Shown piece after piece: positions 14,829 through 21,941 of a stretch of DNA of 26,359 nucleotides. The stretch is from a bacterium (GTDB lineage Bacteria > Patescibacteriota > Minisyncoccia > Phycocordibacterales > UBA2163), in contig JABGQE010000002.1 in NCBI GenBank assembly GCA_018648925.1, positions 1 through 26,359 on the forward strand, given 5' to 3'. Under the pieces are notes generated by a model, which saw only the letters and a list, made by a program, of their open reading frames with translations, was not told where the DNA came from and made no database searches. The stretch's first letter is position 1. Every line of letters starts with the position of its first letter. Made by a program: the position numbers and the translations under genes.

Positions 14829-15977
14829 ATGACAACAAAAACTGAAGACTTAGAAGATAAAGTAGAAGAAACAAAAGAAGAAGATTTAATACTACAAAAG
14901 AAGACTGGGAAAAAGGATTCCGTAATGGCGAAGCTATTAAACGATAGCCCTAATCCACCCGAATCAGGAGACCTTGTTGAAGGTCCTGTTATTGGCATTG
15001 AGAAATCAAGTGTATTTATTGATTTACATCCATTCGGAACTGGTATTATTTACGGAAAAGAATTCCTACAAGCATCTGACGTACTTAGGAAAGTAAACCT
15101 TGGCGACAAGGTCGCAGCAAAAGTAGTTGACCGAACTACAAATAAAGATGGTTATATTGAACTATCTCTCAAAGAAGCTCGACAAGCACTTCTTTGGAGT
15201 GAGGCAGAGATTGCTATTGCAAATAAAAGTATTATTGAAGTCCCTGTAAAAGAAGCAAACAAAGGCGGGCTTATACTTGAATGGAAGAGCATACAAGGTT
15301 TCTTGCCTGCATCACAACTTAAAGCAGGTCATTACCCACGAGTAACAGACGGCGACAAAGATAAAATCCTAAACGAATTAAATAAATTAGTAGGTACAAA
15401 ACTTTCAGTATCTATTATCACAGCAGATCCTAAAGAAGGTAAACTTATCTTCTCTGAAAAAGATCCAGAAAAGAAAGAGAAAGAAAAGATTGTAGACAAG
15501 TATGCAGTTGGCGATGAATTAGATGGAGAAGTAACAGGTATCGTTGACTTTGGTATCTTTGTAAAGATTGAGGAGGGGCTTGAAGGGCTTGTGCACATTT
15601 CTGAGATTGAATGGGGTCTAGTAGATGATCCTAAAGCACTCTTCAAAGTAGGAGACAAAACAAAAGTTAAAATTATAGAAATCAAAGACGGTAAGATCTC
15701 ACTTTCTATAAAAGCTATGAAGGAAAACCCTTGGAAGAGCGCGATAGATAAGTATAAAAAAGATGACAGTGTTACTGGCGTTGTAATCAAATACAATAAA
15801 CACGGAGCTCTTGCTTCAATAGAAGAAGGGGTTGCAGGACTAGTACATGTGTCAGAATTTGAAAACGAAGAAGAATTACGCAATACACTTGAACTTGGGA
15901 AGACTTACAATTTCAAGATAGCAGTATTTGAACCAAAAGAACAAAAAATGACGCTTTCGTTTAAGAAAGAAGCTTAA
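14829..15977 (+). CDS. rpsA: 30S ribosomal protein bS1 (four S1 repeats)
   Basis: ANKGGLI, GFLPASQL, IVDFGIFV...EGLVHISEI and GLVHVSE S1-domain motifs. Confidence 0.93.
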   Translation: MTTKTEDLEDKVEETKEEDLILQKKTGKKDSVMAKLLNDSPNPPESGDLVEGPVIGIEKSSVFIDLHPFGTGIIYGKEFLQASDVLRKVNLGDKVAAKVVDRTTNKDGYIELSLKEARQALLWSEAEIAIANKSIIEVPVKEANKGGLILEWKSIQGFLPASQLKAGHYPRVTDGDKDKILNELNKLVGTKLSVSIITADPKEGKLIFSEKDPEKKEKEKIVDKYAVGDELDGEVTGIVDFGIFVKIEEGLEGLVHISEIEWGLVDDPKALFKVGDKTKVKIIEIKDGKISLSIKAMKENPWKSAIDKYKKDDSVTGVVIKYNKHGALASIEEGVAGLVHVSEFENEEELRNTLELGKTYNFKIAVFEPKEQKMTLSFKKEA

Positions 15978-15994
15978 CAAGACAAACAAAATAC

Positions 15995-16034
15995 AAAAAT
16001 AAACAGCTCATCTCACGATGAGCTGTTTATTTTT
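15995..16034. terminator. Bidirectional intrinsic terminator after rpsA
   Basis: Perfect 18-bp inverted repeat AAAAATAAACAGCTCATC-TCAC-GATGAGCTGTTTATTTTT. Confidence 0.88.
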
Positions 16035-16040
16035 TAATCT

Positions 16041-16061
16041 ATCCAAGGTTCGACCTTGGAT
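16041..16061. repeat. REP-like palindrome copy 1
   Basis: ATCCAAGG-TTCGA-CCTTGGAT, 14 nt beyond the CDPS stop. Confidence 0.85.
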
Positions 16062-16075
16062 TTTATAAGACAATC

Positions 16076-16780
16076 TCAGTTCACATACGCTTCAAGTATA
16101 GCTATTTCATTTGTTACCTTTAGCTTTTCAGCAATTTCTGAGAATAATGTTTTATTACTTAATCCAACTATCAATTTATCTAATTTTGTAAGTCCAGGAT
16201 ATGGAATAAGAGTATAAGTTTTCCATTCGCCATTTTTAAATTGATATTTTGTTCCATTTATAAACACAGGTATTTCGTGGAGTACATATTCTGACAGGCT
16301 CTCTAATCTTACCTCGTCTAAGTTTCTGTCAGGTCTACCTTCTTTTATTATTGAGTAGACGTAATCATGAAATTCTTTATTGTTCTTAAAAGCATCACGA
16401 ACTACTTCTAGCCTGTGTTCATGATACTTAGTCTTACTAACATCTTTCCACCTAGCTATTGTTACTTTACTGGCTTCATCTTTTGGTAGAGTTGAGAGAA
16501 TCTCTTCTATCTTCTTTTGTTTTTCATCAGCCAATCTATAAGCTCTTTTTAAAGCTCTCGCTTTAGACCGACCATCTAATATCTCTATGTTGATTGCATA
16601 AATATCGTCTGCTATTAAAACAAGAACACCATCTTTTGTGTGTTGTAGTGCCCATTCAATATATTTTCTTATATTCTCCTTAGTAAAATATTTGTTTCCA
16701 AGACTGACACCAATCCATATATTGTGTTTTTTGGATTCAACTTCATCTTTTGTTGTGTTTACATATTGTTTAATTCTCAT
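16076..16780 (-). CDS. tRNA-dependent cyclodipeptide synthase (CDPS), XYP subfamily
   Basis: IWIGVSLGNKYF (catalytic Ser plus Asn), VLIAD, RWKDV, YVLHEIP (YxxxExP with catalytic Glu) and LIPYPG (Tyr-Pro); 234 aa, typical CDPS size. Confidence 0.85.
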   Translation of the reverse strand: MRIKQYVNTTKDEVESKKHNIWIGVSLGNKYFTKENIRKYIEWALQHTKDGVLVLIADDIYAINIEILDGRSKARALKRAYRLADEKQKKIEEILSTLPKDEASKVTIARWKDVSKTKYHEHRLEVVRDAFKNNKEFHDYVYSIIKEGRPDRNLDEVRLESLSEYVLHEIPVFINGTKYQFKNGEWKTYTLIPYPGLTKLDKLIVGLSNKTLFSEIAEKLKVTNEIAILEAYVN

Positions 16781-16805
16781 ATTCCAAAATATACCATAAT
16801 ATCTA

Positions 16806-17471
16806 TTATTCTAAGGCCTTGCCTTGGATATTATTGAATTCTTCTATGAGTTCCTTGAAATCATTCAATTGAGAAAAGTGTTCTGGAAAAGAATCTTTGC
16901 TAAGAATTAGCTTATCAGACCTATCCCCTAAAAAATAATCGTGATAGCTTGAATACTTATAATCATCTATAAAATTCTTAGCTTTTGTTGGGTTAGAAAT
17001 ACCCTCTTCTTTCCAATTTGAATCAACCAATTTAACAGGATTAAGATGTATGTATGAAAACACCCAATTTAAATATTCATCAGTATCAATATGTTTTGAA
17101 TTGAATTTACTTTCAAACAATGATCCCTTTCTTTCATATTTTTTATTAAAATACATTGAGTATGCTGTTAATAATTTTTGCATAAACAAACTAATACCAC
17201 CCTCTACTCTCTCATATAAAAGAATATGAAAATGATTAGGCATTAAACAATACGCTCCAATATCAACAAGGCTTTCTCCTCTTTCTATCTCATCCAAGGC
17301 CTTGCCTTGGATTAATTTAAATATAATAGATTTACTACTATTACACACAAACAAAAGTTTTATAAACCTTCTTTTATCTGCTTCATCTAAAAAGATAGTG
17401 TTCTTTAATATCCCTCGATTATATATATGATAATGTTCACCTATTACAAAAGGAGTTTTTCTTAAAGACAT
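16806..17471 (-). CDS. REP-associated tyrosine transposase (RAYT; HUH Y1, IS200/IS605 superfamily)
   Basis: YHIYNRG, AYCLMPNHFH (HUH), SLFESKF, YIHLNPVK (catalytic Tyr) and YKYSSY. Confidence 0.92.
   Translation of the reverse strand: MSLRKTPFVIGEHYHIYNRGILKNTIFLDEADKRRFIKLLFVCNSSKSIIFKLIQGKALDEIERGESLVDIGAYCLMPNHFHILLYERVEGGISLFMQKLLTAYSMYFNKKYERKGSLFESKFNSKHIDTDEYLNWVFSYIHLNPVKLVDSNWKEEGISNPTKAKNFIDDYKYSSYHDYFLGDRSDKLILSKDSFPEHFSQLNDFKELIEEFNNIQGKALE
16810..16828. repeat. REP-like palindrome copy 2, in frame at the RAYT C-terminus
   Basis: TCTAAGG-CCTTG-CCTTGGA (one wobble); encodes IQGKALE immediately before the stop. Confidence 0.85.
17292..17312. repeat. REP-like palindrome copy 3, in frame inside RAYT
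   Basis: ATCCAAGG-CCTTG-CCTTGGAT; encodes IQGKALD upstream of the HUH strand. Confidence 0.9.
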
Positions 17472-17479
17472 GTAATAAT

Positions 17480-17508
17480 ATTATAGAGGTATATTCTGCA
17501 CATTCCAA
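17480..17508 (-). promoter_or_regulatory. Putative RAYT promoter with -35 box inside REP copy 4
   Basis: Minus strand TTGGAA-17 nt-TATAAT, 8 nt before the ATG. Confidence 0.55.
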
Positions 17509-17522
17509 GGCAAGGCCTTGGA
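17504..17522. repeat. REP-like palindrome copy 4, loop inverted relative to copies 2 and 3
   Basis: TCCAAGG-CAAGG-CCTTGGA, between the pth stop and the RAYT start. Confidence 0.9.
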
Positions 17523-17528
17523 CAACAA

Positions 17529-18119
17529 TTATCTATTAAACTCATTCATTGCATTAGACCTTCCTTCTTTTATTATCACTTCAAGCGCTTCATTTACTTT
17601 TTTGAATACTTTCTTAAGTATTTCTGTTTCTTTCTTTTTAAAGTCCCCTAATATAAAATCTATTACTTTCTGTTCTGTTTTTATTTTTTTGATTTTCCCA
17701 GATGGTGTCGCAGGTGCAATACCAACCCTTATACGAATAAAATCTTTTGTTTTTATACTACGCACGATAGACTCTATTCCTTTATGCCCACCTGACCCCC
17801 TACCAAATGAGATCTTAATCTTACCAAGTGGCATATCAAGATCATCGTAGATAACAACCAAATTCTCTGCTTTCTTTTTACTTGTAATAAGTGGCTTTAT
17901 AGAAAGTCCCGACTTATTCATAAACCCTTGTGGCAATAAAAGCTCAATTTTTTGCTTTCCTATCTTCCCTTCAGTTACAAAAGCCTTTAATTTTTTATTA
18001 TTTTCAAAAGTAGCAAGTTTATTTTTCTTTGCAAAACTTTCCACAGAAAGAGCGCCCGTGTTGTGCCGAGTGTTTTCGTATTCTTCACCTGGGTTTCCAA
18101 GTCCTACTATGTAAATCAT
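17529..18119 (-). CDS. pth: Peptidyl-tRNA hydrolase
   Basis: IVGLGNPGEEYENTRHNTG, FMNKSG, YDDLD, GSGGHKG and RIRVGI. Confidence 0.96.
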   Translation of the reverse strand: MIYIVGLGNPGEEYENTRHNTGALSVESFAKKNKLATFENNKKLKAFVTEGKIGKQKIELLLPQGFMNKSGLSIKPLITSKKKAENLVVIYDDLDMPLGKIKISFGRGSGGHKGIESIVRSIKTKDFIRIRVGIAPATPSGKIKKIKTEQKVIDFILGDFKKKETEILKKVFKKVNEALEVIIKEGRSNAMNEFNR

Positions 18120-20735: not shown

Positions 20736-21941
20736 ATGGCGCGTAATATCACAACAGGAATAGATATCGGTACATACCAAATAAAAGTGGTGGTAACAGA
20801 GTACGGTAAAAATGGAAACGGTAATATGCCTAAGATAATAGGTACCGGTTTTGCGCAATCTAAAGGTCTTCGTCATGGTTATATAATCAACCAGAACGAC
20901 ACAGTCAGAAGTATCACTACGGCAGTAGCACAAGCTGAAAAGTCAGCTGGTATAAAGATCAAAAAAGCATTCATCTCTATAGGCGGTGTAGGACTAGAGG
21001 AAGTACATTCCAAAGGAGGCGCTGTGGTTGCAAGAGCTGATTCAGAAATCACAGATTTAGATATTGAGAAAGCAATAAAAGACAGCGAGAAAAGAGTTGC
21101 ACAAAAAATCGCAAATAGAAAAATCCTACACGAAATCCCCCTTCAATACAAAATAGACGGACAAAAAGTTCTTGGTAAACCACAAGGAATGCGCGGGAGC
21201 AAAATTGAATTAGACGTACTTTTTGTTACGTGTCTTGAGCAACATTTAAATGACCTCATCTCATCTGTAGAAGATGCTGGTATCGTAGTAGAAGACGTGA
21301 TGGCGTCCCCTTTGGCTGGAAGTTTTGTCACATTAAGTCGAGCGCAAAAAGTAGCAGGCTCTGTACTTGCAAACATAGGGGCTGAGACTGTCTCTATAGT
21401 AGTATTTGAAAACAATATGCCTGTATCACTTAAAGTATTTTCAATTGGTGGGACAGATATAACAAACGATATAGCCCTAGGACTTAAGATCCCTCTTGAT
21501 CAAGCAGAGCGGGTAAAAACAGGTGCTCTCTCTGGTGCTGAATTCCCACAGAAAAAGCTAGACGAAATCATAAGCGCAAGACTTTCTGATATATTTGAAC
21601 TTATTGAATCGCATTTAAAAAAGATTGGCAAAAACGGATTACTCCCTGCAGGGATTATAATCACAGGTGGTGGCTCAGGCATAGCAACTATAGAAGACCT
21701 TGCACGCGCCGCACTTAAGCTTCCTTCAAAAACTTCTTCTGGTTTTGTCGGCGACAATGTCCTGCCTGCCGGCAGGCAGGGATCAGTAGTAGTACAAGGA
21801 AACGTACGGGACTCTTCATGGGCAGTTGCATACGGACTTTGTATCTGGGGACTCTCAACTGAGGAAGATGGCGTAGGAGTAAAGCTTGCAAAACAAACTG
21901 GTGGAAGCATCGTGCAGTGGGTAAAGCAATTTTTGCCATAA
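20736..21941 (+). CDS. ftsA: Cell division protein FtsA
   Basis: GIDIGT, KGLRHGYI, ANIGAETV, IIITGGGS and a C-terminal amphipathic helix; directly upstream of ftsZ. Confidence 0.95.
   Translation: MARNITTGIDIGTYQIKVVVTEYGKNGNGNMPKIIGTGFAQSKGLRHGYIINQNDTVRSITTAVAQAEKSAGIKIKKAFISIGGVGLEEVHSKGGAVVARADSEITDLDIEKAIKDSEKRVAQKIANRKILHEIPLQYKIDGQKVLGKPQGMRGSKIELDVLFVTCLEQHLNDLISSVEDAGIVVEDVMASPLAGSFVTLSRAQKVAGSVLANIGAETVSIVVFENNMPVSLKVFSIGGTDITNDIALGLKIPLDQAERVKTGALSGAEFPQKKLDEIISARLSDIFELIESHLKKIGKNGLLPAGIIITGGGSGIATIEDLARAALKLPSKTSSGFVGDNVLPAGRQGSVVVQGNVRDSSWAVAYGLCIWGLSTEEDGVGVKLAKQTGGSIVQWVKQFLP
21761..21780. repeat. Perfect 20-bp palindrome in frame within ftsA
   Basis: CCTGCCTGCC-GGCAGGCAGG, GC-rich against an AT-rich background; read as (V)LPAGRQ(G). 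Confidence 0.9.

Follow-up and report, generated by a model that had tools for sequence, protein, structure and literature searches.

We describe a locus in a marine member of the Patescibacteriota (GTDB lineage Minisyncoccia; Phycocordibacterales; UBA2163) at which a single cyclodipeptide synthase (CDPS) gene lies between two hairpin-forming palindromes. Beside it stands a gene for a transposase that resembles the tyrosine transposases found with repetitive extragenic palindromes (REPs), known as RAYTs. The locus occupies the gap between rpsA and pth on contig JABGQE010000002.1 of assembly GCA_018648925.1, whose positions 1 to 26,359 make up the window analyzed here. The explanation that we prefer is that a REPtron-like unit is resident in this gap and that the hairpin over the stop codon of its transposase gene served as the junction for the gain of a single foreign gene, here the CDPS gene with one palindrome of foreign type. 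We regard this explanation as about an even bet. Hairpins at this site probably mark where single genes swap in and out. RAYTs are generally credited with moving nothing more than short REP/REPIN sequences and are not known to take part in gene acquisition. We found no description of a hairpin-bounded RAYT gene slot in the literature on Patescibacteria RAYTs, on CDPS genes associated with transposases or on IS605 passenger genes.

Four related palindromes frame the CDPS and RAYT-like genes

The genome under study (G000; 506 kb, 37% G+C, estimated to be 93% complete) is tiny, and the window is its contig C15. The CDPS gene sits in a hairpin-bounded slot adjoining a gene for a hairpin-cutting type of transposase. 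The gene order is rpsA(+), a bidirectional terminator, CDPS(-), the RAYT-like Y1/HUH gene(-) and pth(-). An earlier reading of the sequence by itself (the original prediction) had proposed this order and the layout of the palindromes, and both hold. The features, in window coordinates, are the following.

14829 to 15977, plus strand: rpsA (ribosomal protein S1, 382 aa), the conserved left flank, with four S1 domains (Pfam, 6e-38)
15995 to 16036, no strand assigned: intrinsic bidirectional terminator common to rpsA and the pth-RAYT-CDPS strand, with an 18-pair stem and a T-run on the minus strand; the plus-strand T-run was read directly in the sequence
16041 to 16061, no strand assigned: REP1, ATCCAAGG-TTCGA-CCTTGGAT, the fourth, terminator-proximal palindrome, which bounds the cargo (pattern scan, single-stranded DNA folding)
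16076 to 16780, minus strand: CDPS gene (234 aa, XYP type; PF16715, TIGR04539), the cargo
16788 to 16796, minus strand: putative extended -10 element (TGG-TATATT), a match by pattern only, 7 nt ahead of the CDPS start codon
16806 to 17471, minus strand: RAYT-like Y1/HUH transposase gene (221 aa, motifs NHFH and YIHLNP; Pfam Y1_Tnp, 34.7 bits against a cutoff of 23, 2e-8)
16808 to 16828, no strand assigned: REP2, also called P3, with one stem mismatch, overlapping the RAYT stop codon (pattern scan)
17292 to 17312, no strand assigned: REP3, also called P2, in frame inside the RAYT gene at codons 54-59 (IQGKAL; pattern scan)
17480 to 17508, minus strand: RAYT promoter-like site, with a -35 hexamer TTGGAA inside REP4, a 17-nt spacer and a -10 hexamer TATAAT (10/12 matches, by consensus match only)
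17504 to 17522, no strand assigned: REP4, also called P1, upstream of the RAYT gene, its loop inverted relative to REP2 and REP3 (pattern scan, folding)
17529 to 18119, minus strand: pth (peptidyl-tRNA hydrolase), the conserved right flank (Pfam, 4e-54; TIGR00447)

The pattern CCAAGG-N5-CCTTGG is matched perfectly at 16043, 17294 and 17505 and with one mismatch at 16811. These four matches compare with 0.02 expected from 100 shuffles, none of which reached four. Only about three other sites in the whole 506-kb genome fit the pattern, and all are unrelated. The bracketing of CDPS is therefore not a product of palindrome abundance, which the original prediction had named as a possible objection. 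For one site to fall by chance in the gap of approximately 100 nt between rpsA and CDPS has a probability of about 4e-4, and chance bracketing is unlikely. Counted as a REP/REPIN population would be, this palindrome has only four copies in the genome, all at this locus. As single-stranded DNA they fold into hairpins of -7.8 to -8.7 kcal/mol (z -4 to -6), REP2 being weaker (-4.5). The palindromes fit the gap closely: REP1 starts 5 nt past the T-run of the rpsA terminator, and 6 nt separate the end of REP4 from the pth stop codon. REP2 spans the final RAYT codons and the stop (IQGKALE-stop), at a distance of 30 nt upstream from the CDPS ATG.

REP1 differs in type from the other three. It has the same 8-bp stem, but its loop is TTCGA where REP2-4 have CCTTG or CAAGG, and this loop type occurs once in the G000 genome. 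Over 20/21 nt REP1 matches the cognate palindrome of a sister RAYT lineage found on contigs L108/L109. The REP1 20-mer is present in 64 metagenome contigs, and the TTCGA type, counted in both loop orientations, has 76 metagenome copies, 39 of them inside open reading frames (ORFs) of at least 100 aa. REP1 is a palindrome of foreign type, and its type is a dispersed repeat in metagenomes. A role for REP1 as the CDPS terminator was considered and rejected, because on the minus strand it lacks a following T-run and the likely bidirectional terminator is the rpsA hairpin.

The pth-rpsA junction carries a series of alleles

We surveyed the junction in nine genus genomes (G001 to G009) and in metagenomic contigs (L numbers) carrying RAYT relatives 76-85% identical to the one in the window. 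The alleles found were as follows.

G001, G003, G007, G008: empty; rpsA and pth abut or share one terminator
G009: terminator and a solo palindrome, ATCCAAGGGCGACCCTTGGAT
G005, G006: RAYT with three palindromes, no CDPS
G002, G004: other genes after pth
L107: RAYT with the CCTTG palindrome three times, P3 lying 6 nt from the rpsA terminator, no cargo
L106: the same CCTTG RAYT type, different DNA after P3
L108/L109: RAYT with three TCCAAGG-TTCGA-CCTTGGA palindromes (the REP1 sequence), then a 234-aa HEIIH protein and an XRE helix-turn-helix regulator
L219: RAYT, then a LamG-like gene
L177: pth, P1, RAYT with P2, P3 and a 103-aa ORF, then a fourth palindrome at a distance of 4 nt from the rpsA terminator, and rpsA

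The flanks are stable: pth orthologues are present in 9/9 genus relatives, rpsA orthologues are 82-93% identical among them, and the rpsA terminator hairpin is kept in G005, G009, L107 and L177. The solo palindrome of G009 locates the edges of the insertion, since the DNA on its left aligns with that to the left of REP1 and the DNA on its right with that to the right of REP4. L177 is an independent replicate of the window architecture with a different cargo. Cargo and a second, terminator-proximal palindrome occur together at the same position in G000 and L177, and both are absent from the cargo-less L107, G005 and G006. On sequence comparison, this contrast favors a mechanistic link between cargo and palindrome. 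The original prediction fared well here. It had called for empty, RAYT-only and different-cargo alleles, and all three classes were found; it had expected the empty site to be two convergent genes sharing a symmetric terminator, as seen in G003; and its view of the unit as an indel with palindromes as edges is supported by the G009 alignment. Its observation was thus confirmed and its interpretation borne out in part: the palindrome-edged indel and the allele series stand, while the idea that RAYT and CDPS form one mobile module is not supported.

Phylogeny gives a direction to some of these changes. A tree of nine concatenated proteins (3,327 columns), which replaced a two-gene tree of slightly different topology, had the form (G005, G002, (G006, (G000, G009))) with support of 100/100, 99/97 and 86/91. 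G000 sits inside a clade of CDPS-less genomes. Read from this tree, CDPS is most simply one late gain on the G000 branch, the alternative being at least three losses, and G009 most simply appears to have lost its RAYT and kept one palindrome.

Other variants of the junction were also seen. In G002 (L100, G002:C24) a LamG-like secreted protein gene and a small coiled-coil ORF separate rpsA from pth, and the region also holds a 35%-identical RAYT paralogue. A WG-repeat protein gene lies between rpsA and pth in G004 (L103, G004:C28). A more distant relative (L156:3740-4550) has pth, an extended TCGAA-type palindrome, approximately 750 nt without a long ORF and then rpsA; this stretch may be a non-coding RNA or decayed cargo. 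An apparent variant RAYT allele in L032 was rejected, the difference being an N scaffold gap at the internal palindrome. Such N-gaps fall exactly at perfect palindromes (G000 C29:16671-16856 and L032:2375-2477) and are an assembly artefact that mimics variant alleles.

The CDPS gene and its origin

The cargo scores well above the cutoffs of both CDPS profiles (PF16715, 64.7 bits against 27; TIGR04539, 82.8 against 45). Residues G24, S26, G28, N29, Y165, E169, Y194 and P195 are invariant in an alignment of 21 sequences. They make up the CDPS catalytic pattern of a Ser in G-x-S-x-G-N, a Y-x-x-x-E pair and the Y-P of the XYP subfamily, and we take them to correspond to S37, Y178, E182 and Y202 of AlbC. 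The closest solved structures are the 7QAT-series entries (E 9e-27). Compared with its nearest relative, a copy on contig L028, the gene has a dN/dS of 0.12, indicating purifying selection. By these measures the gene looks functional, as a prediction.

The L028 copy is 87% identical in DNA over 717 nt, and the homology begins 19 nt upstream of the ATG and ends 7 nt short of the stop. It adjoins glmS, a gene that G000 lacks, and its flanks are unrelated to those in G000. From these limits of identity and the unrelated flanks, the imported block would end approximately 10-20 nt from REP2 and REP1. The TATATTTT block of the -10 region is kept in the L028 copy. Upstream of the L028 gene, inverted 9-mers (AGGTTCGAA and TTCGAACCT) resemble REP1; this is a weak lead, and the contig ends 18 nt after the gene. 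A tRNA was sought at these 9-mers, and none was found. In the explanation that we prefer, the G000 lineage acquired the CDPS gene by horizontal transfer.

Reduced genomes of the candidate phyla radiation (CPR) have yielded a stand-alone CDPS before, and we take the 7QAT-series entries, labeled just cyclodipeptide synthase in the search output, to be that protein, from RAAC4_OD1_1. At 97 bits over 215 aa, the similarity is remote. The RAAC4_OD1_1 enzyme, from a Parcubacteria bacterium (PMC7613923), has the same Ser/Tyr/Glu/Tyr-Pro residues as the present CDPS; a RAYT-adjoining genomic setting, such as we describe here, is not reported for it.

A RAYT-like family with its own palindromes

The RAYT-like protein carries its NHFH motif at residues 79-82 and YIHLNP at 140-145, and H80, H82 and Y140 are invariant among 40 homologues. 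An AlphaFold2 model (mean pLDDT 86) was used for a fold search. The top match was 4ER8, the E. coli RAYT in complex with a REP hairpin (E 1e-5, TM 0.65), and the next were the TnpA transposases of IS608 and ISDra2. A phmmer search against the PDB gave no match, and the NCBIfam model REP_Tyr_transpos (NF047646) scored 42.3 bits, below its cutoff of 80. The catalytic motifs are intact, and from motifs and model the enzyme looks functional. In the model, the residues encoded by the internal palindrome fall in the linker between helix 30-42 and strand 69-76.

The enzyme belongs to a family with several members in this genome. G000 encodes seven RAYT-like paralogues that are 31-62% identical, each with its own different palindrome upstream of the ATG. 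In five of the seven a matching palindrome also lies within the ORF, approximately 150-190 nt past the start, and in most another is found at the stop or beyond it. The other six lie at C17:14289-14957, C6:5330-5962, C22:19389-20123, C23:12751-13497, C16:7296-7934 and C16:13916-14566; the matching internal copy is present in 4/6. This picture does not fit a view of RAYTs as single-copy, domesticated genes; the original prediction had spoken of domestication. Family members occur in 68/121 genomes sampled from the order, at 1-12 copies each, and the databases hold more than 6,000 relatives at E below 1e-40.

Palindromes follow their transposases across this family. The G005 and G006 orthologues have the palindrome GTACAAGGG-TCG-CCCTTGTAC, and a stop-codon palindrome is found at the equivalent position in G006, L106, L107, L108, L177 and many order-level homologues. 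Of 69 homologues examined at the level of the order, most show the triplet pattern, with the internal copy, where present, at nt 152-187, and the closer metagenomic relatives share it. Palindrome sequences co-vary with each RAYT in the seven paralogues and in approximately 60 homologues, and loop orientation flips between close orthologues. The peptide encoded by the internal copy changes along with the palindrome (IQGKAL, VQGRPL, YQGSTL and others), so it is the DNA that is conserved and not the peptide. Judged from sequence, the set of three palindromes goes with the transposase family as such. As a separate observation, five additional copies of the C17 paralogue's palindrome (ATAAAGGACWGTCCTTTAT) occur in the genome, at C1:54776, C23:17985, C27:20745, C9:3591 and C28:15879. 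Three of these are inside long ORFs; the others are intergenic with flanking A/T runs, like bidirectional terminators.

One function of the palindromes may be regulatory. The site at 17480 to 17508 is the best promoter-like site of the region; the right arm of P1 supplies its -35 hexamer, and the same -35/-10 geometry can be read in L106, L107, L108 and L177. If the palindromes were purely regulatory or terminator elements (operators for the RAYT or for another protein, with P1 as a -35 box and P3 as a -35-like element for CDPS), gene turnover at the junction would proceed by homologous recombination in the flanks after DNA uptake. The position of REP2 just upstream of CDPS would agree with this, as would an operator-like 28-nt palindrome pair elsewhere in G000 that brackets a helix-turn-helix gene and is perfectly conserved in other species (see below). 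A purely regulatory role does not account for the co-variation of the palindromes with the individual transposase paralogues, for the in-frame position of half of the TTCGA-type copies inside unrelated ORFs or for indel boundaries that coincide exactly with palindromes. We consider it very unlikely as a full account. A palindrome could, however, serve regulation and recombination alike.

RAYT identities do not mirror host relationships. The RAYT of L108 is 79% identical to that of G000, compared with 72-76% for the closer G005 and G006, although the L108 host is more distant (pth 76%, lepB 74%). Related RAYTs (73-79%) are also found at other loci (L110/L111 and L221). Over evolutionary time the RAYT unit thus moves or is exchanged. 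These observations raise the possibility that RAYT and CDPS arrived together as a block from REP1 to REP4, for example by replacing an older TTCGA-type RAYT through recombination in pth and the palindrome, and the bare palindrome of the sister genome G009 could be taken the same way. Set against such a block are L106 and L107, which carry the CCTTG-type RAYT at this locus without CDPS. The type of REP1 also differs from that of REP2-4, so the outer ends are not a matched pair. Approximately 19 other CDPS loci that we examined had neither a Y1 transposase or RAYT nor bracketing palindromes, one metagenome pattern scan found no TTCGA-type RAYT locus with CDPS, and G000 has a single site with no second copy of the RAYT+CDPS unit. 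Arrival as a block is thus quite unlikely. The original prediction of a compact mobile RAYT+CDPS module is likewise not supported, since on the tree CDPS is a lineage-only gain and neither CDPS-RAYT loci elsewhere nor a second copy or junction were found among the loci and assembled contigs examined.

A proposed route for gene gain at the stop-codon hairpin

The explanation that we favor instead separates the resident unit from its cargo. A RAYT-like gene occupies the pth-rpsA gap of the genus and has its own palindrome in three copies: P1 overlaps the putative -35 box, P2 stands in frame at codons 54-59 and P3 covers the stop codon. What lies between P3 and the rpsA terminator would be a slot for foreign genes, and in G000 this slot would have taken up a single, apparently functional CDPS gene with its own putative -10 box by horizontal transfer. 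Most likely, the incoming DNA segment comprised the gene and one palindrome and was connected at P3 by a hairpin-directed join. The join may have been made by RAYT single-strand cleavage and ligation or by recombination between palindromes. The data show the anatomy of the locus, its allele series, the late CDPS gain, the foreign type of REP1 and the intactness of the catalytic motifs; we infer both the joining enzyme and the form of the incoming DNA. The outcome would be one palindrome on each side, with CDPS between P3 (REP2) and REP1, which has the same stem and a sister-lineage loop.

Extra palindromes beside RAYT genes are not confined to this junction. At seven further RAYT loci (L048, L050, L073, L179, L181, L190 and L200) one gene is bracketed by an extra cognate palindrome; the bracketed genes encode DUF1706/DinB-like, flippase-like and TPR proteins and unknowns. 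A cognate palindrome lies one gene away, on either side of the RAYT, at approximately 15% of surveyed loci. Such a pattern is also expected if palindromes are seeded locally. CDPS would then have entered by ordinary illegitimate or homologous recombination, the fourth palindrome would be a relic or a later local copy, and bracketing would be a by-product of tiny intergenic spaces. The solo palindromes after pth in G009 and L156 are compatible with local seeding. The loops of the G009 palindrome (GCGAC) and of REP1 (TTCGA) are more alike than either is to those of REP2-4, and REP1 could accordingly be an old terminator-proximal copy. If so, the locus would be an ordinary variable islet beside a REPtron-like gene. 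Three points speak against seeding. In the two independent cargo alleles, G000 and L177, the extra palindrome lies 4-5 nt from the terminator, a place where alleles without cargo carry P3 alone; if REP1 were an old P3, the RAYT would have had to acquire another in-frame P3 at its stop codon; and copies seeded by the resident RAYT should be of the CCTTG type, not TTCGA. We consider local seeding unlikely, though a serious contender.

Several observations weigh against hairpin-directed gene gain as we propose it. We searched for junctions over 15600-17900 in assembled contigs, which hide rare variants, from four runs (2012-2019). These contigs contained no excision or circle junction of the kind that the original prediction had suggested looking for, no CDPS-less allele and no alternative joint at any palindrome. 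In each run one contig spans the locus with 0 differences, and the two joints listed were short spurious pieces. The locus is identical in approximately 196 metagenome blocks, giving no sign of current activity. The hairpin feet of the four copies share no tetranucleotide and have no GT[AG]G-like guide. At L108/L109 no palindrome was found within 85 nt beyond the cargo. In a compact genome, a palindrome copied to the nearest gap brackets a gene automatically, so the nine bracket cases are no proof of capture. In L048 and L050 the bracketed TPR genes are homologous and in synteny, and may be no more than neighbors.

A broader form of the proposal is that RAYT-like enzymes and hairpins of Patescibacteria constitute an integron-like gene-capture platform that works by single-strand hairpin cleavage. 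Single genes bearing a palindrome would be spliced in beside the stop-codon palindrome, giving lineage-specific cargo at the same site. We put this forward as a possible but doubtful generalization.

Relation to known systems

The resident unit resembles REPtrons, such as TnpA-REP/YafM of E. coli (4ER8) with its REP/BIME elements and the REPIN-RAYT systems of Pseudomonas. Both have a Y1/HUH enzyme with a Y-x-x-x-NP motif, a gene flanked by a co-evolving cognate palindrome, and dispersed related palindromes that are often inside genes (PMC6006769, PMC3733652). Unlike in REPtrons, here there is no GTAG foot, the palindrome has four local copies, and the genome has seven paralogues rather than one gene. 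The palindromes also have fixed places (in the promoter, in frame before the HUH motif, at the stop codon), and a protein-coding gene lies between two of them.

By its motifs only, the RAYT resembles TnpAY1 subclass 2.1 (Bertels group 1), the TIRYT enzymes of the 'TIRtron' (Quentin et al. 2018, PMC6006769; Di Nocera et al. 2013, PMC3733652). The two share NH[YF]H, Y[IV]HLNP and a length of approximately 220-240 aa with a C-terminal extension. Subclass 2.1 likewise has several diverged copies per genome, and its flanking repeats may overlap gene ends. Quentin et al. 2018 (PMC6006769) described no REP-like structures for subclass 2.1 and reported in-frame REPs in subclass 2.4, located between HuH and Y. 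In our locus, by contrast, perfect hairpins flank the gene and the internal hairpin precedes HuH.

Comparison with IS200/IS605 elements and their non-autonomous PATEs is also instructive. Their subterminal hairpins are recognized as single-stranded DNA by a Y1 transposase, so that anything between the ends is movable in principle, and IS608 and ISDra2 TnpA are among our structural matches. The present locus differs in having no near-identical copies (31-62%), YIHLNP instead of Y-x-x-x-Q, no tnpB and no conserved orientation of the end loops. Integron attC cassettes offer an analogy, not a homology: single promoter-proximal genes, imperfect palindromes read as single-strand hairpins and varied cassettes on one platform. 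Unlike integrons, the locus has no IntI tyrosine recombinase, no attI and at most 1-2 genes, and the enzyme would be an HUH nuclease.

If our explanation is correct, hairpin-specific HUH enzymes, or the hairpins by themselves, may bring about gene flux in ultra-small genomes, from which most classical mobile elements are missing. The alleles seen at a single core-gene junction range from empty through a solo hairpin and the transposase only to the transposase with different single genes. Our comparisons also show the exchange of a stand-alone CDPS between CPR bacteria as a module of one gene, which bears on how episymbionts acquire small-molecule chemistry.

Other repeats in the genome

Further repeats were noted outside the pth-rpsA gap. 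A G+C-rich palindrome family (CCTGCCTGCCGGCAGGCAGG) has five copies, at window positions 21761-21780 (in ftsA), C1:55424, C21:12449, C29:1046 and C33:2102; no cognate transposase was identified for it. A relatively G+C-rich intergenic repeat of approximately 60 nt occurs at C25:1646-1709, C25:985-1048 and, in reverse, C25:3878-3923. It has approximately 10-40 blastn matches per genome in G000, G002, G005, G006, G008 and G009 and is not a tRNA. Rfam assigned no family to this dispersed repeat or to the locus in the window. On the same contig, an identical 19-nt palindrome (ACAAAGGTTAGACCTTTGT) at C25:1729-1747 and C25:2637-2655 lies on both sides of a 220-aa secreted ORF, where genus members differ from one another.

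An identical 28-nt palindrome at C5:3210-3237 and C5:3742-3773 brackets a 153-aa helix-turn-helix-like ORF. G005, G006 and G009 carry it with 100% conservation at other loci, which makes it a probable operator. The second copy marks the exact point at which homology with G006, G009 and G002 ends; approximately 685 extra nt are present there in G000.

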